Positions 2,008 to 32,000 of a stretch of DNA of 32,000 bases are shown piece by piece. Position 1 is the stretch's first letter, and each line of letters starts with the position of its first letter. The notes under the pieces are model-generated. The model worked only from the letters and a program-made list of their open reading frames with translations, was not told the origin of the DNA and did not search any database. The DNA is from Verrucomicrobiota bacterium (GTDB lineage: Bacteria; Verrucomicrobiota; Verrucomicrobiia; Chthoniobacterales; UBA6821): the NCBI GenBank assembly GCA_008932965.1, contig WBXG01000012.1, positions 1 to 32,000 of the forward strand, written 5' to 3'. The translations under genes were made by a program, and so were the position numbers.

Positions 2008-2049
2008 CTTCCCAGCTTCCGCAGGTTATTAGTATGAAACATTCAGGTT
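2008..2049 (+). mobile_element. 42-nt right-end fragment of a subfamily-A element
   Basis: CTTCCCAGCTTCCGCAGGTTATTAGTATGAAACATTCAGGT matches the last ~42 nt of copy 20781-20957 with a few substitutions. It sits directly downstream of the preceding copy. Confidence 0.6.
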
Positions 2050-2116
2050 TAAAACCTCACGATTATTAATAAAATTTTAAAACAATGTGACGATCACCCT
2101 ATAGCCATACAATCCT

Positions 2117-2713
2117 ATGCAAACTAGTATACCAAGATATCAAGATGCTACTCATTCTTCACCCAGTAGCGTGTCAGCTACTGATTCACTCACAACTAAC
2201 AGCTCTCACGCAGAAAGCAAAATCGGAGACTTTTTAGGAACAAAAATTTATGAAGGTTCAAGCTCTACTGGCGAAGTGAAGCGATTAGTTTCACAGATAG
2301 AGGAAAAATTAAATCGTCAGAAGGTCAATCAACAAATTGTGAAAGGCACGCCTAGGATCTATCCAGGGTATCCAGTCTCAAATGATTTGGATGTTACAAT
2401 TAATCCATGGCATTCTAATATCGCAGATTTTTATTCTGAAGACTCAAAAGTATTAGATTCCAATAATCCCTCACGTTCCCATAGTCAAGATGCTTCAGAT
2501 ACTTCAGATGCTTCAGAAATAGATCCTGATGGTCTCACTATGGAGAATATTTATACCGAGGACCCAGAAATTACGCCCCGAACAAATCCATTAAAAAATC
2601 CCAATGAGAGTGAAAGCACTCATTTCACAATGGGGTCGCTCAAAAGAGGAAATCTTGTCATAGGAGAAAAGGAATATCCAAGAGAGTCACTTAACCCGGA
2701 TATTTCATACTGA
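2117..2713 (+). CDS. Hypothetical Ser/Asp/Asn-rich, probably disordered protein (198 aa)
   Basis: ORF only. I recognise no motif and no TM segment, and the composition is low-complexity. The stop codon TGA (2711-2713) lies inside the left arm of the next element. Confidence 0.45.
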   Translation: MQTSIPRYQDATHSSPSSVSATDSLTTNSSHAESKIGDFLGTKIYEGSSSTGEVKRLVSQIEEKLNRQKVNQQIVKGTPRIYPGYPVSNDLDVTINPWHSNIADFYSEDSKVLDSNNPSRSHSQDASDTSDASEIDPDGLTMENIYTEDPEITPRTNPLKNPNESESTHFTMGSLKRGNLVIGEKEYPRESLNPDISY

Positions 2714-2870
2714 TCGTGACGAGGAGGCCACGAAGGCTGATGGGGCAAGGCGAGTGATGAAGTCTGACGACGGCTGTATGTTTCATACTGCCCGAGTAAA
2801 ACTTTGAGATCAACGCAGCATCCATCTGGCTGCCCAGTCTTCGCAGGTGATCGGTATGAAATATCCGGGT
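2694..2870 (+). mobile_element. MITE-like element, subfamily A, full length (177 nt)
   Basis: 22-nt arms 2694-2715 and 2849-2870 pair with a single T:G. TA (within TTAA) flanks both sides at 2692-2693 and 2871-2872. No conserved ORF. Confidence 0.85.
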
Positions 2871-2973
2871 TAACAAGATGAATTTTTTTGACTTAGTTCT
2901 TGCTATAAAAAAGGCAATAGAGCATCTTATCGAACTAATTTTTGAACCAATTTTTTGGAACACATCTTCGGCC

Positions 2974-3453: not shown

Positions 3454-4116
3454 ATGCAACCTGTCGTATCATCTTCAAAAAACTTTCCAACGCTCGAGGC
3501 TGAAGCCCTTTTATTATCACGAGGAATACGACCTGTAGCTGGAGTAGATGAAGCTGGTCGCGGACCCTTAGCGGGCCCTGTAATTGCTGCAGCCGTTATT
3601 TTGCCAGAAATTCTCGATGGTCCCTTAAAAAAAGCCTTGTCACGTTTGGATGATTCCAAAAAATTGAGGCCTAAAATTCGAGAAGAACTTTTTATCATCC
3701 TAACAACAGATCCTCATATTTGTTGGGCTTTGGGAGAGTCCAATGTAGAGGAGATTGGAGACCTCAATATTCTTCGTGCAACAGCTCTTGCCATGAGACG
3801 TACCCTACTTGCATTAACAAGAACACCAGCTCATGCCTTAGTCGATGGATTACCCGTGCGTGATCTCCCTGTACCTCAGACAGCTCTCGTTGGAGGAGAC
3901 GGGCTCTCCCTTAGCATTGCTGCAGCAAGTGTGATTGCTAAGGTCACCCGAGATCGCATTATGGATGAATTAGATCATGCATTTCCTCAGTATGGGTTTA
4001 GACATCATCGAGGTTATGGAACTTCAGAGCATTTAAAAAAACTCAACCAATATGGACCTTGCCAGCATCATCGACGCGGTTTTAAACCTGTGGATCAAGC
4101 CTCCTTCAACTTCTAA
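3454..4116 (+). CDS. rnhB: Ribonuclease HII
   Basis: N-terminal GVDEAGRGPLAGPV catalytic motif. Length ~220 aa. C-terminal HRRGFKPV-type tail. Confidence 0.9.
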   Translation: MQPVVSSSKNFPTLEAEALLLSRGIRPVAGVDEAGRGPLAGPVIAAAVILPEILDGPLKKALSRLDDSKKLRPKIREELFIILTTDPHICWALGESNVEEIGDLNILRATALAMRRTLLALTRTPAHALVDGLPVRDLPVPQTALVGGDGLSLSIAAASVIAKVTRDRIMDELDHAFPQYGFRHHRGYGTSEHLKKLNQYGPCQHHRRGFKPVDQASFNF

Positions 4117-4489
4117 AGGCCCCAAGGCCCTTGGATTATGGGGAGAACGTTATGCAGCACAAACCTTGCGCCGTCACGGCGTTAAGATTCTTTATCGTAA
4201 TTATCGAGCTCCGCAGGGAGGAGAAGTCGATTTAGTCTGTCGAGATAGAGAGACACTTCTTTTTGTAGAGGTCAAAACACGGCGTGTTGAAAAAAACTTT
4301 CGTCCTTTAGATGCAGTAAATCATAAAAAACAAATGTTAATTAAACGAGGAGCACTCTCGTGGCTTCGCTTACTGGGCAATCCTGATATCCCTTTTCGAT
4401 TTGATGTCATCGAGGTGATTGCCACTCACCCACCCCAAGCACGTTGGATTGAGAATGCTTTTTTACTACCAGATCCTTTTCGATATTAA
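4052..4489 (+). CDS. yraN: YraN-family (UPF0102) putative endonuclease
   Basis: GERYA..., GGEVDLVCRD and LLFVEVKTRR motifs of the YraN family. The start is uncertain: ATG 4052 overlaps rnhB by 65 nt and I saw no later canonical start in frame. Confidence 0.75.
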   Translation: MDLASIIDAVLNLWIKPPSTSKGPKALGLWGERYAAQTLRRHGVKILYRNYRAPQGGEVDLVCRDRETLLFVEVKTRRVEKNFRPLDAVNHKKQMLIKRGALSWLRLLGNPDIPFRFDVIEVIATHPPQARWIENAFLLPDPFRY

Positions 4490-4667
4490 CCTGGATACTT
4501 CATACTGAAGTGTCATGAGGCGCCGTGCAAAGCTTATAAGTACAAGGCGGGCGAAGGATTGCGACGACGGCTACATATTTCATACTGCCCGAGGAGCAAT
4601 TCGAGACTAACGCAGTATCCATTAGGTGTTCGCAAGCCGCAGCAGAATCAGTATGAAATATCCGGGT
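4489..4667 (+). mobile_element. MITE-like element, subfamily B, full length (179 nt)
   Basis: Arms ACCTGGATACTTCATACTGA and TCAGTATGAAATATCCGGGT. Flanked by TA at 4487-4488 and 4668-4669. It fills the whole space between two convergent stop codons. Confidence 0.85.
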
Positions 4668-7033
4668 TAACGCTCTTGCAACACGGAATGCTCTATCAAT
4701 GCTTGTATTGCTTGTAGAAAAGGGGCTCTCTCACTTGAATCGAGTGCCAGTTTTTTTTGAATCCACAATTCTGCTTTTTGTTGTGCACTCTTGAGCGCTT
4801 CATGGACTGCATTTGCATTAGTAATACATAGAATTAGTTTTTCTAATGATCCCTCCTGGAGAAGATCATTACGTTTTCTTAAGTTTTCAGCAATCCGGGC
4901 AATCTGTTTTTCATCATGGTAATCATGAAACTGAGCAAGAATTGACCTCATATCCTCTACTCCCTGTGCAGCATCCATTCGCCCTCTATGTGCAGCATGA
5001 TAGGTCTCAATCAAATAAGGGTGAAGCCATGAAGTCTCTCGAAGCATTTTTCCAGTATCAGCTTCCAGCAAGCTCATGAGCTGATCTCCGCACAAAGTAT
5101 TCCATTCAGCCAAATCAAACAACGTGCTGGAGTCAGAATAATATTTTTCAAATCGATCGAGGAGCGGAGTGATTGAAGAAGAAAAAGTCTCACTAACCGA
5201 TTTAGAAATATGATCACAGGAAGTGGCAGCCTGTAAGGCATGCTTGGAATCTTCTAATATTTTTTCATTTTTACTCGGAGAATGAAATATACCTGATCTT
5301 TTCTTTTCTTGGAGTGGAGTGCTCTGCTTCTGCACCTCTACTAAAGAGTCTCGAGCAGAGGTTAATTTAATTTGATTAAGTGCTTGCCCATTTTTAAAAA
5401 AACTTTGGGCAGCATTAAAATGAGTAGTGATGATTTTAGCAGCACTAGATCGCTCATTTTCAATACCAGCAAGTTTAGAGTCTATAGATTCAACTCTAGT
5501 ATTAATTTCATCGGCAACTAAATTAGGATCCTTTATTTCAGCTCTTAATTTCCAAAGAAGAGATTTCTTACTTTGTAATTTCTTCATTGACTCAAGATAG
5601 AGATCCAATCCTCGTTGCACTTCATGATACTGATTCTCGAGCTGACGATAAACTCCCTGCTCTTGATCTGCATCAAGAGCCTTGCAAGCTACTTTATCGA
5701 GGTACTGCAATTGTATCGTAAGGCAATACCGTGTTGCTTCACAGAGCATCTGTAAGGAGGTGAGCGATGGCTTTGATCCATCTCTATTGTCGGATCCTGC
5801 TGCAGTAACTTGATGGAAAGCTGAGTGCTTTTCTAACTTAGAGATGTGAGAAATGAGAGCACCTAACTTGTGTTGTTTAGCATGCTCTGTTCTAAAATGA
5901 GTTAATCGCTTTTCTCGTAATAACCTCTCCTCACTTTCGTGCTGATTCTGTAAGTCAACCATCGCTTGCAAGCGTTGTTGTATTTCTTGATTTTCTTTTT
6001 TTAATCTTTCGATTTCCTGAGTGTGAGCATCTTCTCGAGCGGTAAAGTTAACATGAAAAGCTGCTATTATTTTTTCAAAGAGAGGATGGGGCTTGACTTC
6101 TGATGAGGTCGATCTGGAAAGAGGAAAATAAGAAGCAAGGTCTCTAAAGAGAAATTTCACTTCTTTATGAGAAGTACTATTTTGACCATTACCAAAGTCC
6201 TCTCTTGTTATTAGATTTCCTTGAGCATCGACCCTCCAATTATCTTTTACATCAATCTCTTGTATATTCTTTGCTTTTTTGAAGGCTTCTATATTGGGGT
6301 AAGGATAGAATGACTTGGTCTGCGCATAGATGACTTTTTGAAAAAAAGTACGGCTTTGAGGTAGTGGATCAATATCAGGAAAAAACTCCACCTGATCAGC
6401 CCCTTCATAAAATGAATAGATAGGGCGTCTTCCTCTCAACCCATCAGCAAAACCCTTCATACAGGAACGTTGATCTGGTTGGAATAGAGTAGTGACGGTT
6501 GCATGCCCAGTAATATCATCAACCATAACACTTCCACCAGTAAGGCCTGCCCTTTCAAGCTCTGCTCGTTCTTGAGCATTTTGATGCACTATTGCTAACT
6601 CTTGGGGGGAACTATTCCCTCCTTGGACTCCTTCGATATCAGGATGCAAGCAACATGAATCTAACACTCTATAACTCCCATGAATCAGGGGCCCCATGAT
6701 CAGTGCTCCAGCCAAAAGAACAGAACATTTTTCAAAAGTGGTGAGACTATCCCAATTGGAAAATCCTGCCTCCATGCTGGATCCTTCCTTTACTATTTTT
6801 GAAGAAGTTAACTGAAAAAAAAGAATGTTAGATTTAAGATCGGGGTCAGTTTGAGCAGGCGTTAAAGAAAATGATGGGTCATAGGAATTTTTCCAATCAC
6901 AGTAACTCTTGGTATCATTCCAAGAAAGAAAGCAAATGGGATGATCTAAGGTTTCAACATTAATAACCTCATAGTGATACTCTCCAGGGCTACCAGTACG
7001 TTGAATAGAAAAAACACTGGAGCCTCTTCCCAT
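4667..7033 (-). CDS. Large hypothetical protein (788 aa), C-terminal two-thirds coiled-coil / Gln-Glu-Lys rich
   Basis: Long uninterrupted ORF. One hydrophobic stretch (CSVLLAGALIMGPLIHG) near residue 105. Heptad-like, charged, Q-rich sequence from about residue 330 onward. I recognise no catalytic motif. Confidence 0.8.
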   Translation of the reverse strand: MGRGSSVFSIQRTGSPGEYHYEVINVETLDHPICFLSWNDTKSYCDWKNSYDPSFSLTPAQTDPDLKSNILFFQLTSSKIVKEGSSMEAGFSNWDSLTTFEKCSVLLAGALIMGPLIHGSYRVLDSCCLHPDIEGVQGGNSSPQELAIVHQNAQERAELERAGLTGGSVMVDDITGHATVTTLFQPDQRSCMKGFADGLRGRRPIYSFYEGADQVEFFPDIDPLPQSRTFFQKVIYAQTKSFYPYPNIEAFKKAKNIQEIDVKDNWRVDAQGNLITREDFGNGQNSTSHKEVKFLFRDLASYFPLSRSTSSEVKPHPLFEKIIAAFHVNFTAREDAHTQEIERLKKENQEIQQRLQAMVDLQNQHESEERLLREKRLTHFRTEHAKQHKLGALISHISKLEKHSAFHQVTAAGSDNRDGSKPSLTSLQMLCEATRYCLTIQLQYLDKVACKALDADQEQGVYRQLENQYHEVQRGLDLYLESMKKLQSKKSLLWKLRAEIKDPNLVADEINTRVESIDSKLAGIENERSSAAKIITTHFNAAQSFFKNGQALNQIKLTSARDSLVEVQKQSTPLQEKKRSGIFHSPSKNEKILEDSKHALQAATSCDHISKSVSETFSSSITPLLDRFEKYYSDSSTLFDLAEWNTLCGDQLMSLLEADTGKMLRETSWLHPYLIETYHAAHRGRMDAAQGVEDMRSILAQFHDYHDEKQIARIAENLRKRNDLLQEGSLEKLILCITNANAVHEALKSAQQKAELWIQKKLALDSSERAPFLQAIQALIEHSVLQER

Positions 7034-7298
7034 CTTTTCATCGTAGAGATCCTGAGAATATATTGTTGCAGAAATCTAATCTTTCAAATGAAGTGATGAA
7101 CTCTGCTGAGACTCAAGAAAATCAGAATACTCGAAAGTATTTATTTGAAGAAAAAGTGCATCTTGGGGTGCCTTTTCCTGAGTCTCCCTGGAGGAGGAGT
7201 TTGTCAAACTCACTACAAATGCTAAAACACAAAATAAATACTTTAATTTCACACTTAGTCCTTTCTTAGAAAAATAGGTAAATTTATAGTCACTAGGA

Positions 7299-14068: not shown

Positions 14069-14748
14069 TCAGGGCAAGGAAGAGTCTTCAGCAACTATTG
14101 GAATGTGCAATGGCAGAGGTAGCTCATTGGTGAAGAACAATTTTTTTAAATTATCATATTTTAAACTTAAAAGAAAGTTTGAAAAGTAATGGGAAATAGT
14201 GATCGCTGGCCTATCAACGTACCTATAAAAAACAACTGAGACCAAGATAGAGATGAGCGAGTAGAGGAAAAAATTTAGTAAAAGAGCTAGAGAGGTGTGG
14301 GGTAAAAAAAGATAGAAGGCACAGGAGAGAGAGCAGAGGATGAGAAAATGGAGTAGATAGAGTCCATAGGAGATCCTTCCTAAAAATTGAAAAATTGGAG
14401 CCTCAAAGATTTTTTTGCCATATCCTTTAACAATAGGAGCTACTAATAAGACAGCTCCAATGGTCGTATAAAAATCTTTTTTCCTAAATACTCCCACAAG
14501 CGGAAGAAAGTCATAATATCTATTTTCAAATTGAAAAGCCCCAAAATAAAAGTGCAATAAGAATAACATAGGGAACCCATTTTTTGGAAATAGTAACGGC
14601 ATGCAAGAGCGACCCAATCATGATTGCAAAGAGAAAAAGTAAAACAGGCCATACCACGTAATCCATCCGCATTTTTATTAATACCGCTCTTTTTGGTAAC
14701 ATCGAAAGTTGAGAATAACCTAGATTCATCAACCCTTGCGACCTCCAT
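14069..14748 (-). pseudogene. Decayed acyltransferase-3 (OafA/YrhL-type) gene: frameshifted and internally shortened
   Basis: The N-terminal family motif DGLRGMA (14647-14667) is in one frame. Its expected continuation VLLFLFAIMIGSLLH is in a second frame, a 1-nt shift near 14646. The C-terminal motif FLGRISYGLYLLH...RYVDRP is in a third frame (ORF 14069-14617). Only ~90 codons separate the motifs, against the roughly 250 I would expect for this family (from memory, not checked). Confidence 0.55.
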
Positions 14749-14751
14749 GTT

Positions 14752-14775
14752 AGAATTGGCATGAAATATCCAGGT
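14752..14775 (+). mobile_element. Right-arm remnant of the MITE-like element
   Basis: AGAATTGGCATGAAATATCCAGGT followed by TA. The core ATGAAATATCC(A/G)GGT matches the right arm with one mismatch. Confidence 0.55.
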
Positions 14776-14955
14776 TAAAAAAACAGTAGCCTTTTTCAGT
14801 AAAATCGGAGGTCTCATACCTGCTCTTGGACACCATAGATCCAACTTTGTTCAAATTAACAAAAAAAAGCTTGCCTCTTTCGCCAAAGAACTTAATGGTT
14901 ATCGGCACTTTTATTTTAGATGTTTTCTCATCATCTAATGCAAAAAAATTATTAA

Positions 14956-18258: not shown

Positions 18259-18287
18259 TGTCAAAAAAATTCAAATTAGCAACAGAG

Positions 18288-18344
18288 AATTTCATCATGA
18301 AGTGACATGAGGTGCTATGCAAAGTTTATTAGTATAAGGAGGGG
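18288..18344 (+). mobile_element. Left-half fragment of a subfamily-B element
   Basis: By hand alignment to 31057-31113, about 46 of 57 positions are identical (AATTTCATCATGAAGTGACATGAGGTGCTATGCAAAGTTTATTAGTATAAGGAGGGG). It overlaps the last codons of comEC. Confidence 0.7.
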
Positions 18345-20677
18345 TAACCCGAAGCATTTAGAATCTCCCAATCTTTGTGATCCAAAAACTGATGTAATCT
18401 CACCCTATCTCTTAAAACCTCTAGAATGATTGCTCCTGTTTGCACCTGATCTAGCACGGTGATCCCAGATCCATAAAGGCTCGATTCCAGCTCTTGAAAT
18501 GAGGGACTGGAATGATGTTTTTTAAAAGGATCATTTCCCAAAATCACACAACGTGGTGCTACTGCTTTTATAAAGTCTTCCTCCATTTTTTTCTCCATCG
18601 ATGGAAAAAGAAGAATTGTCGCATGTAATTTCTCAAGTGAGCTATGTTCTAGCAGCCAGGTTTGAAGAGAAATCGAGGAATTAGGAATCCACAAAAGGCT
18701 TGCTTTGCCTAATTGAAACTTTAGGACAAGAGCAGAATCAGAAGAGCCAACAGGTGGATACAAAACTTCTGCAGAGCAGCTCGGAGAAAAATTCAGCTGA
18801 TCCCCCTCACGAAGAACTGTTAACTGCATACCTGATTCGCCGAGCTTTCTTAAAAAATGTTTGAACACAAAAGAATTTCCTTTTTCCTCAGAGGAGAAAA
18901 AAGAGGAGGGTTGAATCTCCTCTAAGAGGGGCACGAGACCGCCTATGGTGGCAGCTCTCTTTTCAGTAATCACGATTCCTTGAAGAGCTGATATTCCATT
19001 TTCTGCAAAAAAGGGAAGGAGGCAATGAGCTGCCTTGTTAGCATTTCCAGTATTGATCATCCATGCATTGCCCTCCACTTGGAGCATCGCAGCTTGTGCA
19101 ACAGGAAAATCAAAAATAGTAAGTTTTGGAGAGCGATTCATTGAAAAGCCAACTGAAAACGAAGTCAGAGGAAGCAGGCTGCATCCATGAACGACCATCA
19201 AGAGAATTTTGGCACAGAGCCAATTGCTATTATTAAAAACAGGTGCCACCCATGGAAAGAAGGGCGCAACAAGAACTGCTAAAACTGCAAGAGCAAGAAT
19301 TAAAAAGGCTATTGGAACAGCAATCACATTGGCCACCAAGGAAGAAAAAGAAAGAAGATGAAAATAAAAAAGTGTTGGAAGTAAAGAACCGATCCATGCG
19401 GCAGCAGAAACAGCCACAAGCTGAGTAAAGTGATGACACAAGTCATAGCGCCATTTCTGAAATGGGGTGATTATTCTTTTTGGAAGGAAAGGATCATGCT
19501 TGTAGAGCGGATGAAGTATTTTTTGAAATGGAGTTGCTAAAAAAAGAATAGAGAAGACCACGCAGAAGGAAAATTGCCACCCTATGGAAAAAAGAAGATT
19601 TGTTTGCGATAGGAGCAGACAAAAAGCTGCTGCTGCAAGGCTATTGATCATCTGGGGTCGTCGAGATACAAGAAAACCAATGAGAAAGAGGGAGCTCATG
19701 AAAGCCGCTCTAAGACTTCCAATTCGAAAGCCAGTGATGGCTACATAAAAAAAAAGAAGCGGAATCGTCACAAGAACAGCAGACCAACGTGGCAGCCGAA
19801 GCATTTTTAAAAAAAACCAAATAATGACCGCAAGCATCCCAACATGGAGTCCACTCACAGCAAAAAGATGCATTGTTCCAGTTAGTTTAAAATCATCTAT
19901 GAAATCAACAATTTCCTCTTCTTGAGAGCCAAGAGCAATAGCCTTAATAAGCTTCATCGCAGTAGAATCATCCGTGATCCCAAGAGTGATCCATTCTCCT
20001 ATCTTTTGGCGACACTCCAGAGCCATCCTCATGAGTTGATGGAGCTCCCCAGAGGAAAGAATACGACCTGGATCTGAGGGATCCATTCTAAGTTCAGTGA
20101 AGACTTCTTTGCGAGCTAGCCACGTTTTGGCATCAAACTCCCCTGGATTTCGTGGGCCTTGAGGGGAGATTGCCTGGGCTCTCAACGATACTCTCTCTCC
20201 ATATAGCAGAGGAGGTCCCTCCCAATGAACAAACATCGTCACTGGGAGAGTTAGCTCGGATATTCTATCTGTTTGGAGAAAAAATGAACTGTAATGATTT
20301 GAAGAGACCTTTACCTCACTAGCCACCCTCCCCTCTACAGCAATATCATCACCTCTTTTTTCTAAAAGAGAAGCAACCTGATATGCTGGAGATTCCTTCC
20401 ATTGCCATGCATGAAGAGTTGCAAAGCAGAGTGCAATAAAGAGAAAGAAGAGACCCTGCTCTATGATGCAGGAAAGGGGGTTTTTCCAAATGAAAAATAA
20501 AAGAACTCCTCCTAAGAGAAGACTCCCCAAAAAAATCCCCCAGCTTGGAAAAGAAAAAATCTCCTCTGTAAGAATCCCTACAATCGCTGCTAAGACGAGC
20601 CCTAGAAAAGGGAAACGCCTGTTCTTTAGTGAAAAAAAATCACTAAAACGAGAACAGGGCAGTAATGGCCATTTCAT
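18329..20677 (-). CDS. comEC: ComEC/Rec2 DNA internalisation channel protein
   Basis: Competence-domain motif HLFAVSGLHVG and many TM helices. The C-terminal region is metallo-beta-lactamase-like but lacks the canonical metal-binding motif (see findings). Confidence 0.85.
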   Translation of the reverse strand: MKWPLLPCSRFSDFFSLKNRRFPFLGLVLAAIVGILTEEIFSFPSWGIFLGSLLLGGVLLFFIWKNPLSCIIEQGLFFLFIALCFATLHAWQWKESPAYQVASLLEKRGDDIAVEGRVASEVKVSSNHYSSFFLQTDRISELTLPVTMFVHWEGPPLLYGERVSLRAQAISPQGPRNPGEFDAKTWLARKEVFTELRMDPSDPGRILSSGELHQLMRMALECRQKIGEWITLGITDDSTAMKLIKAIALGSQEEEIVDFIDDFKLTGTMHLFAVSGLHVGMLAVIIWFFLKMLRLPRWSAVLVTIPLLFFYVAITGFRIGSLRAAFMSSLFLIGFLVSRRPQMINSLAAAAFCLLLSQTNLLFSIGWQFSFCVVFSILFLATPFQKILHPLYKHDPFLPKRIITPFQKWRYDLCHHFTQLVAVSAAAWIGSLLPTLFYFHLLSFSSLVANVIAVPIAFLILALAVLAVLVAPFFPWVAPVFNNSNWLCAKILLMVVHGCSLLPLTSFSVGFSMNRSPKLTIFDFPVAQAAMLQVEGNAWMINTGNANKAAHCLLPFFAENGISALQGIVITEKRAATIGGLVPLLEEIQPSSFFSSEEKGNSFVFKHFLRKLGESGMQLTVLREGDQLNFSPSCSAEVLYPPVGSSDSALVLKFQLGKASLLWIPNSSISLQTWLLEHSSLEKLHATILLFPSMEKKMEEDFIKAVAPRCVILGNDPFKKHHSSPSFQELESSLYGSGITVLDQVQTGAIILEVLRDRVRLHQFLDHKDWEILNASGYPSLY

Positions 20678-20688
20678 TCGATATAAGG

Positions 20689-20750
20689 GACGCCGCTCTT
20701 CGCCGCCTCAGTAGAGACCTGGAGAATATCAAAAACCGTGTCGCAAACTC
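20689..20750 (+). repeat. 28-nt direct repeat copy 1 (20689-20716) plus 20-nt inverted-repeat arm a (20731-20750)
   Basis: GACGCCGCTCTTCGCCGCCTCAGTAGAG recurs exactly at 21013-21040. AAAAACCGTGTCGCAAACTC is the exact reverse complement of 21038-21057. Confidence 0.9.
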
Positions 20751-20780
20751 GCTGAGTCGGATGAAGAGCAAGGAGTCAAG

Positions 20781-20957
20781 ACCGAATATTTCATACTGAT
20801 CGTGACGAGGAGGCCGCGAAAGCTGATGGGGCAAGGCGAGCGATGAAGTCTGACGACGGCTGTGTGTGTACACACTGCCCGAGGAAGACTTCGAGCTCAA
20901 CGCAGCATCCATCTGACTTCCCGGCTTCCGCAGGTGATCAGTATGAAATATTCGGGC
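20781..20957 (+). mobile_element. MITE-like element, subfamily A, full length (177 nt)
   Basis: Perfect 20-bp arms 20782-20801 and 20936-20955. TA follows the right end. The left flank (CAAG) has diverged from TTAG. Confidence 0.85.
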
Positions 20958-21012
20958 TAAGAGCAGAGCCGAGGAGTGTATAGTTAATACACGACGAGGC
21001 GAGCACCGCAGC

Positions 21013-21057
21013 GACGCCGCTCTTCGCCGCCTCAGTAGAGTTTGCGACACGGTTTTT
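21013..21057 (+). repeat. 28-nt direct repeat copy 2 (21013-21040) overlapping 20-nt inverted-repeat arm b (21038-21057)
   Basis: Exact matches to 20689-20716 (direct) and 20731-20750 (inverted). It abuts the stop codon of the lipoprotein gene at 21058-21060. Confidence 0.9.
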
Positions 21058-21582
21058 TTAATTGAAAGAAAATGGGGAGTAACACGACTCCTCATACACC
21101 GAATCATACCAGTCATCAACAATCGGTTCATTGTAAAAGAACGGCTGCTTATCCTGATTTAACATGGAGTTAGCCCGTATATATTTTGGAACTTTGAAAC
21201 CCGAGGAGGCTGTTTTATTATTTCCATAAAAACCTTGAGTCTCGGTTAAATAATTAACTAACTCTCGTGAAGCTCCCATAGCGCGCAGGTGGTGAAGTTG
21301 CACATAGGTAAAATGATAAACAGCTTCGGTACTTCGCAAATATCCCACAATGACATAGGTAGGAACTTTGCTTTTCACTAGGTTCATGATATCGTCATAG
21401 TCTAAGTGCTGACCATGATTGATTTTATTACGTGTTACGGGGTAGACATCATGAGCGCTTACGATCGAGGTTACTTGAGGATCGACTGTCGGTCCATTGG
21501 CGCAACCGGCAATCAAAGTAAGAATTAATCCAGTAAGCATTAAAACAGCAGTCACTGTGAGCAGAGATATTGTACTCTTCAT
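21058..21582 (-). CDS. Hypothetical lipoprotein (174 aa)
   Basis: Signal peptide with lipobox LIAGC. No recognisable family motif. Confidence 0.7.
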   Translation of the reverse strand: MKSTISLLTVTAVLMLTGLILTLIAGCANGPTVDPQVTSIVSAHDVYPVTRNKINHGQHLDYDDIMNLVKSKVPTYVIVGYLRSTEAVYHFTYVQLHHLRAMGASRELVNYLTETQGFYGNNKTASSGFKVPKYIRANSMLNQDKQPFFYNEPIVDDWYDSVYEESCYSPFSFN

Positions 21583-31042: not shown

Positions 31043-31049
31043 GGAGTTA

Positions 31050-31229
31050 GCCCGGATATTTCATACTGAAGTGTCATGAGGCGCCGTGCAAAGCTTATTA
31101 GTACAAGGCGGGCGAAGGATTGGGATGCCGGGCTGTATGTTTCATACTGCCCAAATCACAATTCGAGACTAACGCAGTAATGATGAGCTTTCCACAAGCC
31201 GTAATAGATTTAGTGTGAAATATGCGGGC
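31050..31229 (+). mobile_element. MITE-like element, subfamily B, right half degenerate (180 nt)
   Basis: The left ~75 nt are nearly identical to 4489-4565. The right arm TTTAGTGTGAAATATGCGGGC is decayed. Flanked by TA at 31048-31049 and 31230-31231. Confidence 0.8.
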
Positions 31230-32000
31230 TAGTCCGGATGTTTCGGAGTAACACTATTTTTCTTACGTTCTGCGAAACGCTCTAAAACCACAAAGAAAGA
31301 GGGAACCAAAACGACTGCCAAACAGGTTGAAGCTAGCATTCCTGAAGCAACAGCAATACCGAGTGATTTCCGAGCATTGGCACCTGCACCGGAGGCAAAG
31401 ACAAGGGGCATCACTCCAACAATAAAGGTGATGGAGGTCATTAAAATCGGACGAAAGCGATTAATAGCAGCCATCGATGCAGCCTCGATGATTGCGTGGC
31501 CTGCAGCACGATACTCACGAGCCATTTCTACTACAAGAATGGCATTTTTCGCAGAGAGTGCAATAAGAAGGACAAGACCAATTTGGACGTAAATATTATT
31601 GGCTAATCCTATTCCTCCTAATGCTACGACTGTTCCAAGTAAGGCGAGAGGAACGGCTAAAATAACAGCAACAGGGGTAATCCAACTTTCATACTGACCT
31701 GCAAGAACCAAATAAACCAAAAGAAGAGCAAGCCCAAAAACAAGATAGGTGGAGGCTCCTGCAAGTTTTTCTTGATAGGACATCGCAGTCCAGGAGGTTT
31801 TAGCACCAGAAATCAATTCTTCATCAGCAATCTTTTGTAACTCTTCTAATGCTTGTCCTGAACTCGTTCCATGAGAGGGAACTCCAATAATAGATGCAGA
31901 GGGGTAAATATCGTAGAGCGTTATTGTCGAAGGTCCAAAGGAGTGATCAATTTTTACTAGTGAGCCAAGAGGCACCATGGAATTTGTCTGGCCACTTGTC
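31229..32000 (-). CDS. RND (AcrB/HAE1-type) efflux transporter, C-terminal part; continues beyond the right edge
   Basis: AcrB-like TM7-12 region (AGQYESWITP..., SAKNAILVVEMA, RFRPILMTS). The frame stays open upstream of the tracked Met to nt 32000. Confidence 0.88.
   Translation of the reverse strand, partial: TSGQTNSMVPLGSLVKIDHSFGPSTITLYDIYPSASIIGVPSHGTSSGQALEELQKIADEELISGAKTSWTAMSYQEKLAGASTYLVFGLALLLVYLVLAGQYESWITPVAVILAVPLALLGTVVALGGIGLANNIYVQIGLVLLIALSAKNAILVVEMAREYRAAGHAIIEAASMAAINRFRPILMTSITFIVGVMPLVFASGAGANARKSLGIAVASGMLASTCLAVVLVPSFFVVLERFAERKKNSVTPKHPD

Follow-up and report, generated by a model that had tools for sequence, protein, structure and literature searches.

An apparently undescribed family of hairpin-forming miniature inverted-repeat elements in freshwater Chthoniobacterales, with matched arm changes between subfamilies

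The stretch analysed here, 32,000 nucleotides (nt) of a Verrucomicrobiota bacterium (assembly GCA_008932965.1, contig WBXG01000012.1, positions 1 to 32,000; the window hereafter, meaning the stretch at its full length), contains five full copies and three terminal fragments of a repeat of about 180 nt, one copy of which is the non-coding, 177-base stretch 20781-20957. The repeat is a non-autonomous cut-and-paste miniature inverted-repeat transposable element, or MITE, that inserts at TTAA or CTAG, and full copies form one imperfect hairpin from end to end. The two arms of this hairpin do not decay independently, and because internal-loop positions and a G.U pair recur across subfamilies, it is the fold itself that is constrained, and not only the ends that a transposase would bind. 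Covariation between subfamilies is strong and maintenance after insertion is weak, and the constraint is therefore placed at amplification, being visible mainly among amplified lineages and not among resident copies.

The assignment as a MITE rests on the ends of the element and on its target site. The element has 24-nt terminal inverted repeats, 20-25 nt long in individual full copies (CCCGGATATTTCATACTGATCG ... CGATCAGTATGAAATATCCGGG), which are perfect or near-perfect in the window copies beginning at 2691, 4486, 20779 and 31046 and are conserved in 113 copies. A comparison of an empty with a filled site is provided by locus L086, whose synteny with the window covers 2.9-12.2 kb (75-85% identity). 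The window has a single TTAA at 3621-3628 (...CCC TTAA AAAAAG...) inside rnhB (3454-4116), and the orthologous position in L086 reads TTAA[CCCGAATATC...ATATTCGGG]TTAA; the target is therefore TTAA, duplicated as 4 base pairs (bp), and the element itself ends in CCC...GGG. Among the first 58 copies, the flanking tetramers are identical on the two sides in 30, with CTAG/CTAG found 16 times, TTAA/TTAA 14 times, and a few mixed or mutated combinations. Outer and inner positions of the tetramer change in concert, a covariation more in keeping with a 4-bp duplication of a palindromic pyrimidine-T-A-purine (Py-T-A-Pu) site than with a TA duplication. Py-T-A-Pu is what IS5 duplicates, with CTAG as the most frequent form (PMC5493358), and the 4-bp Py-T-A-Pu duplication expected of mobilisation by the IS5 family is what surrounds the element. 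Small size, many dispersed copies, terminal inverted repeats and a target-site duplication, together with the lack of a transposase gene, are the features by which MITEs are recognised. A REP/RAYT or IS200/IS605-type single-strand element was considered and is ruled out by the long terminal inverted repeats and the 4-bp duplication.

Adjoining elements with a single common TTAA are frequent, and in the back-to-back elements at L014:6491-6874, L017:244-488 and L118:7116-7360 the duplicated target has been reused by the next copy. An element also lies upstream of rplS in both syntenic genomes (L086:2617-2895 and window 2691-2873), the two positions being about 28 nt apart, the subfamilies different, and the L086 copy carrying a 93-nt apical module. 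These are therefore independent insertions into the same intergenic region, and the differing position and subfamily rule the pair out as orthologous copies in which change could be followed in situ. For the copy at 31046, the comparison sequence in L050 is too diverged to read.

A pattern scan of one genome per species, with hits then checked against the element profile, placed the element in four Verrucomicrobia (Chthoniobacterales) metagenome-assembled genomes (MAGs), namely 'Verrucomicrobia bacterium K_DeepCast_35m_m1_007', 'Spartobacteria bacterium Kiruna_bin-02438', Chthoniobacterales Deming_bin.170 and Chthoniobacterales Tobar2m-G38; pattern hits outside Verrucomicrobia are chance matches, none of which fits the element profile. 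Scanning of lake metagenome contigs with the terminal repeat yielded at least 92 stretches, and a profile search of 1.09 Mb of loci returned 343 non-overlapping matches and 113 distinct full-length copies, some 8-kb loci holding ten or more full or partial copies. Copy counts given here come from a first sample of 58 full copies or a later one of 113, drawn from loci of MAGs and lake metagenomes among the matches listed. At gathering score, Rfam recognises only two tRNAs in the window, and neither 20650-21100 nor a long variant of the element in L081 has any match at E<=1; a full-text literature search on MITEs in Verrucomicrobia returned no paper that seems to describe one, going by title and abstract. 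Because neither an Rfam family nor such a paper was found, the family appears to be undescribed.

Clustering of the arms yields seven subfamilies of three or more members (A, A2, AD, B, C-Tanganyika, C2 and E), of which A/A2 includes the window copies at 2691 and 20779, and B the copy at 31046. The arms are modular, alternative arm modules being combined within a hairpin that spans the whole element, and left/right chimeras, with arms of different subfamilies, make up about 10 of the first 58 copies, the window copy 4486-4670 among them. Helix sequences differ between subfamilies and pair in all of them (GAAGTCT/AGACTTC in A, GGATTGC/GCAATTC in C2, CATTTTGAT/ATCAAAATG in AD, GGATTGTGAT/ATCACAATTC in B), and the apex (GGCTGTATG...CATACTGCC) and the loop motifs CAAGGCG and AACGCAG are conserved across subfamilies. 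Longer variants of about 230-400 nt (L076:8034-8435 on the minus strand, L081:10303-10560, L077:1458-1716, L105:10489-10749 and L118:9542-9799) have acquired extra G+C-rich modules in an arm and at the apex, such as ACCACCGGCGGCCCAAGAGACC...GGCAGACC and GGGCTGCCCCTAACCTAACGGTTACGGCAGTC, which pair with each other; the 402-nt variant folds at -183 kcal/mol (z -7.6).

The minimum free energy of the focal copy, 20779-20960, folded as RNA is -94.1 kcal/mol, as compared to -55.0±4.0 for its dinucleotide shuffles (z -9.8, 0/200), and the copies at 2691 and 4486 give z scores of -7.2 and -4.2. All seven subfamily consensus sequences adopt the same hairpin, at -86 to -110 kcal/mol, in which a terminal stem is followed by helices 2a and 2b, then a small loop, then helices 3a and 3b, with an apical stem-loop at the tip. 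On the plus strand of the focal copy, the left terminal inverted repeat (20782-20802) pairs with the right one (20935-20955) over 21 bp in the minimum-energy fold. The left strand of helix 2a (20809-20816, GGAGGCCG) pairs with 20922-20929 (CGGCTTCC) in the same register as in the subfamily folds, and matched A-T/G-C variants of this helix are seen within subfamilies. Helix 3b joins 20844-20851 (TGAAGTCT) to 20886-20893 (AGACTTCG) and is the helix most variable in sequence between subfamilies, with pairing kept. The apical stem-loop (GGC.GTGTG....CACAC.GCC, 20858-20879) shows the highest conservation across subfamilies of any internal part, and chimera breakpoints are frequent there.

Because mosaic subfamilies mis-align internally, RNAalifold run on the raw MAFFT alignment of 58 copies recovered the terminal stem only, and an alignment of the subfamily consensus sequences was used in its place. 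From this alignment of seven, RNAalifold predicts a structure of 65 pairs in which 95.2% of cells hold a standard pair, as against 84.2±1.0% after column shuffling and 31-41% when partners are slid by 1-3 columns. Pairs changed on both sides number 29 of the 65, where column shuffles give 15.3±2.1 (0/500 reach 29) and slid partners 4-7. Internal-loop and wobble positions recur across subfamilies, and consensus columns 56/141 form a G.U pair in 6 of the 7. Covariation supporting a conserved fold, as asked of a structured RNA gene, is found here at the level of the subfamily consensus.

Within subfamilies the signal of pairing conservation is weak. Paired sites change at 0.042 substitutions per site and unpaired sites at 0.056, that is, 24% slower when paired (p 0.006), and single changes at Watson-Crick pairs, counted as distinct events, lead to G.U 66 times, to A.C 41 times (p 0.02) and to other mismatches 56 times. 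Double changes that restore pairing occupy 11 cells (8 distinct events) where a position-shuffling null gives 4.5±2.0 (P 0.004), the 11 cells not being independent and some being polymorphisms common to several subfamilies. Diverged copies and chimeras fold much worse than intact ones.

A preliminary description of the window, made from its letters alone, had proposed that compensatory substitutions keep the terminal stem and an internal helix paired, and its base counts are all correct: 2696-2715 and 2849-2868 form 19 Watson-Crick pairs and one T:G, 20782-20801 and 20936-20955 pair at 20/20, ATTCTGA (1831-1837) and TCAGAAT (1985-1991) pair at 7/7, 2731-2739 and 2835-2843 form 8 Watson-Crick pairs and one G:T, and 20817-20825 and 20922-20930 form 7 Watson-Crick pairs, one T:G and one A:C. 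The last two pairings had been read as a 9-bp internal helix that changed in matched fashion, and this helix is out of register; 20922-20929 pairs with 20809-20816, as described above, and 20818-20825 with 20913-20920, a register supported by the minimum-energy folds of both copies (20779 and 2691) and by every subfamily consensus fold. Two similar purine-rich motifs follow each other in the left arm, and this permits the alternative register. The double change seen in the copy at 1826 does preserve pairing, at a cost of a 4-nt deletion and a compensating insertion in the left arm; against the consensus this arm shows 5 mismatches in 13 when left ungapped or, by our reading of the alignment, one substitution and two indels, and the terminal stem of the copy is mostly broken (-57.6 kcal/mol). 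For the double change in the terminal stem (GGATAT/GAATAT), the ends are indeed, if loosely, associated (chi-square p 1e-6; p 0.007 without the Tanganyika subfamily), and the site is multi-allelic, with G, A or C on the left, and 62% Watson-Crick in 101 copies (G:C 40, C:G 17, G:T 14, G:G 10, A:T 6, C:C 5, A:C 4, A:G 3, C:T 1, C:A 1).

The general claim of compensatory change holds better than these three examples. That the arms do not decay independently is borne out by subfamilies with wholly different helices that still pair, and by covariation in excess of both controls. The further proposal, that the arms are selected or repaired as a hairpin, divides: selection is supported between subfamilies and only weakly within them, where chimeras and decayed copies persist, and repair in DNA does occur and is rare, with a self-templated perfect arm in 1 of 113 copies. 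An equivalent internal helix had not been recognised in subfamily B because the copy examined, at 4486, is a chimera of a B left arm and a C2 right arm; the true B copy, 31046-31231, folds well (-80 kcal/mol). The preliminary description had also held that its case would fail if the matched changes traced to a few already symmetric master copies. Most matched changes do separate subfamilies, i.e. master lineages, and this weakens its case; covariation among the consensus sequences lies far above the shuffled and slid controls.

The element is also asymmetric between its strands. In every subfamily, the strand that the model calls plus has the better fold of the two, as it does in 104 of 113 copies with RNA parameters (mean difference -11.4 kcal/mol) or 101 of 113 with DNA parameters (mean -4.1). 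The same asymmetry appears in an energy-independent count of mismatches flanked by two Watson-Crick pairs on each side, where G.T outnumbers A.C by 67 to 20 and pyrimidine-pyrimidine outnumbers purine-purine by 72 to 10; a plain arm-to-arm alignment count shows none (G.T 275, A.C 245), because loop positions swamp it. The single changes within subfamilies lean the same way (66 events to G.U, 41 to A.C), as does the multi-allelic site of the terminal stem (G:T 14, A:C 4). The plus strand is purine-rich (G 5839, A 5687, T 5079, C 4840).

Taken together, the evidence points to a MITE that is probably mobilised in trans: a DDE transposase of the IS5 kind, with a Py-T-A-Pu target, would move it, its hairpin would be selected at amplification, and template switching would contribute to a minor extent. 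Only variants whose single-stranded form folds correctly would leave many descendants, the correct fold probably serving either to draw both ends together for the transposase or to prevent harm during transcription of the element. Compensatory differences would then accumulate between master lineages and not within resident copies. After insertion, copies show hardly any maintenance, decaying, recombining to mismatched chimeras and lying in either orientation. Occasional template switching by replication across the quasi-palindrome may add matched changes at the DNA level.

Several points weigh against this account. The empty site proves a 4-bp duplication for TTAA only, and only the target site points to the transposase family. 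A search through 396 terminal-repeat occurrences, and through recurring open reading frames (ORFs) in the 1.09 Mb of loci, gave no autonomous element that carries these terminal repeats; MAG and metagenome assemblies usually break at insertion sequence (IS) copies. Where terminal repeats lie inverted 2-4.5 kb apart (L105, L091, L068), the enclosed ORFs are ordinary genes or have no Pfam domain; all-against-all clustering revealed no multi-copy ORF across the 1.09 Mb of flanks, no transposase domain was present among the ORFs tested, and 'orphan' ends are parts of longer variants, of 270-400 nt, of the same element. The covariation derives from seven related consensus sequences with the structure predicted from the same sequences, which the slid control corrects in part, and copy counts are not independent events. 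The strand asymmetry, moreover, is without explanation under a simple double-strand cut-and-paste model. Relative to co-directional flanking genes, orientation is random (15 copies as +E+ and 18 as -E-; 16 and 13 in the first, smaller sample), neighbouring copies lie 33 times in the same and 30 times in opposite orientation, and two copies scanned have no sigma-70-like promoter and no intrinsic terminator or terminator-like T-run.

Host-level RNA function offers a different source of constraint, whereby purifying selection keeps the hairpin after insertion since transcripts that contain it are stabilised, terminated or processed (by RNase III, for example), as proposed for ERIC, Correia and bcr1. 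The strand-asymmetric fold and wobble excess fit an RNA, as do the slightly slower change of paired sites, the small excess of matched double changes within subfamilies and the precedents listed in PMC3184786, and convergent intergenic sites exceeded divergent ones by 23 to 11 in the smaller sample taken first. In the larger sample, however, convergent and divergent sites are equal (17 and 19), and since copies lie at random relative to flanking genes, nothing points to a function in read-through transcripts. The want of promoter or terminator in the scanned copies, the persistence of mismatched-arm chimeras and badly decayed copies, and the failure to match Rfam even at a permissive threshold likewise make a host function unlikely. 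It is very unlikely, too, that there is no constraint at all, with matched changes inherited from a few symmetric founders or arising by chance and the hairpin a by-product of the origin of the element. The weakness of the earlier examples, the separation of subfamilies by most matched differences and the decay of resident copies all lean that way, yet the excess of two-sided changes and of standard pairs over both controls does not, and homologous subfamilies with common loops would need selection or repeated arm copying to keep pairing through such divergence. Independent palindromisation of unrelated sequences is argued against by the conserved apex and loop motifs.

Arm copying is itself an alternative to selection, in that a template switch across the quasi-palindrome, or recombination between inverted copies, rewrites one arm from the other irrespective of the fold. 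The mechanism is documented and creates matched stem changes (PMC7202029, PMC8604942, PMC8794818), and individual copies bear its marks. The right arm of L026:6894-7090 (minus strand) is the perfect complement of its own left arm for at least 27 nt beyond the terminal repeat, including the private change ATTAGTC, and the right arms of L046:1467-1663 (minus strand) and L088:9446-9674 (plus strand) are exact reverse complements of the left arm of another subfamily; all three suggest that replication switched template, or that recombination took place, at the palindromic apex. A private double transversion, A-T to C-G, lies in the terminal repeat of L034:4197-4392. Long self-templated perfect tracts are nevertheless confined to the single copy noted above, the median longest perfect internal inverted repeat is 7 nt, and no left-left form has multiplied. 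Copying would erase bulges, loops and wobbles, which hold the same positions in all subfamilies (the G.U at 56/141 being one example), and for this reason it is not the main source of the covariation; it also leaves the excess of G.T over A.C unexplained. As a general explanation, arm copying is accordingly improbable, and selection of the fold at amplification is preferred.

Strand asymmetry without orientation bias is the least ordinary observation. Because orientation is random with respect to both genes and neighbouring copies, the asymmetry belongs to the element itself and does not stem from where a copy sits, and a link to the replication strand finds no support in the near-equal orientations of adjacent copies. 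The excess of G.T over A.C and of pyrimidine-pyrimidine over purine-purine mismatches, and the purine-rich plus strand, in every subfamily, suggest selection on one particular strand, in the form of RNA or of single-stranded DNA. Such a form could be needed for the element's own spread, for instance as a structured RNA that assists or guides the transposase, or as a hairpin single-strand intermediate in a Py-T-A-Pu-specific pathway, a speculation to which only a small chance is given. If true, a strand-specific form would account for the common imperfect fold and for the wobbles and purine-rich loops of one strand despite random orientation.

The window itself is ordinary chromosome of about 43% G+C, with genes for a subtilase, rplS, rnhB, recD2, comEC, a P-type ATPase, and tRNA-Val/Cys. 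All five full copies lie on the plus strand (1826-2006, 2691-2873, 4486-4670, 20779-20960 and 31046-31231), which is consistent with chance given the orientations of adjacent copies at other loci. The focal copy (20781-20957, plus strand) belongs to subfamily A2, with arm identity to the A2 consensus of 0.95 on the left and 0.97 on the right, and runs from a CCG... terminus to a ...GGG terminus; its left terminus and left flank are decayed, CAAGA followed by CCGAAT standing where YTAR followed by CCCGRAT is expected, and its right flank is CTAA (20958-20961). The copy at 2691-2873, of subfamily A, has TTAA flanks (2691-2694 and 2870-2873) and lies just upstream of rplS, and the copy at 1826-2006 is an old, diverged A-type copy with a damaged left end, adjoined by a solitary right-end fragment (2008-2050, plus strand). 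In the chimera at 4486-4670, the left arm is of subfamily B (0.92) and the right arm of C2 (0.90), with TTAA on both sides and a fold of -63 kcal/mol, and the B copy at 31046-31231 (arm identity 0.95 / 0.97) lies between two convergent ORFs with flanks TTAG and CTAG. The remaining fragments are one of about 52 nt at 14727-14778, 178 nt upstream of tRNA-Val, which is a right end on the plus strand and matches the left-end model on the minus strand, and a degenerate B-type left end at 18278-18343 (plus strand).

The focal copy is embedded in a block of other small repeats, at about 20730-21080, that the orthologous intergenic region of L131 does not have. Around the copy are a 31-nt direct repeat (20686-20716 and 21010-21040), a perfect 20-nt inverted repeat with its halves 287 nt apart (20731-20750 and 21038-21057), and a hairpin-containing unit of about 57 nt (20962-21017); this unit is found again, at 88-90% identity, twice in L038 and also in L001, and L026 has an overlapping match of 40 nt. 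At window 4503-7285, the copy at 4486 and an adjacent 788-amino-acid ORF without Pfam domain (4667-7033, minus strand) are missing from the syntenic L086, where about 30 nt separate the flanking genes. Further upstream, three tandem copies of a 27-nt unit (GAKTTTATYYCAAAATTACRYSACCCT) occupy 416-499, in the 5' part of the subtilase-family ORF 263-1828.

Some copies also bear on coding sequence. The RNase HII gene of L086 is interrupted by the element copy L086:3721-3923, a stop-free, in-frame insert of 192 nt, such that the ORF (3554-4408) encodes 284 amino acids as compared to 220 in the window, with the flanking protein sequence conserved. In each of the seven subfamily consensus sequences, the minus-strand frame that starts at the target duplication is stop-free, as is its plus-strand counterpart in four of them; the 113 copies together have 51 stop-free frames on the minus strand and 34 on the plus strand. 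A stop-free frame could be a by-product of palindromic symmetry or a property that makes the element tolerated when translated. For annotation, many spurious ORF extensions can be traced to the element, as can at least one in-frame insert within a housekeeping gene.

Rickettsia palindromic elements are known for in-frame insertion into genes, and the RNase HII insert, together with the stop-free frame kept by every consensus, is a point of likeness. Unlike those elements, a single in-frame case has been seen here, the length of the usual insert (180 nt plus the 4-nt duplication) does not divide by three, and copies lie mostly between genes. The piggyBac-type transposons of eukaryotes share with the element a TTAA target duplication and 5'-CCC...GGG-3' termini; given a bacterial host and the use of CTAG as often as TTAA, this likeness serves as a lead only and implies no membership. 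Closer are the IS5-derived bacterial MITEs, which likewise have terminal inverted repeats, no transposase coding, dispersed copies and a Py-T-A-Pu duplication (PMC5493358). In contrast to these, no cognate IS was found here, and the palindromic targets TTAA and CTAG dominate over CTAA and TTAG. The terminal repeat (CCCGGATATTTCATACTGATCG) is also presumably unlike that of Escherichia coli IS5.

In architecture, the element resembles Correia of Neisseria, ERIC/YPAL of enterobacteria, RUP of pneumococcus and bcr1, all repeats of 100-200 nt that fold into long hairpins. It differs from Correia, ERIC, RUP and bcr1 in sequence, host phylum and target site, and their expression and RNase processing are documented whereas the present element is known from sequence. 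The target duplication is TA for Correia and RUP, and 5 bp for bcr1. Classic features of MITEs include long RNA hairpins and compensatory changes, and compensatory changes that keep an RNA structure have been described for bcr1 of the Bacillus cereus group (PMC3184786). The known behaviour of bacterial MITEs is thus unchanged, and hairpin conservation by matched changes is typical, not new; what appears new is the family itself, a very dense one in freshwater Chthoniobacterales with a clean TTAA/CTAG target and recombining arm modules. It offers a useful case for separating selection on master copies, selection after insertion and template switching as sources of 'compensatory' change, and in its strong modularity and frequent left/right chimeras it stands apart from Correia, ERIC, RUP and bcr1.

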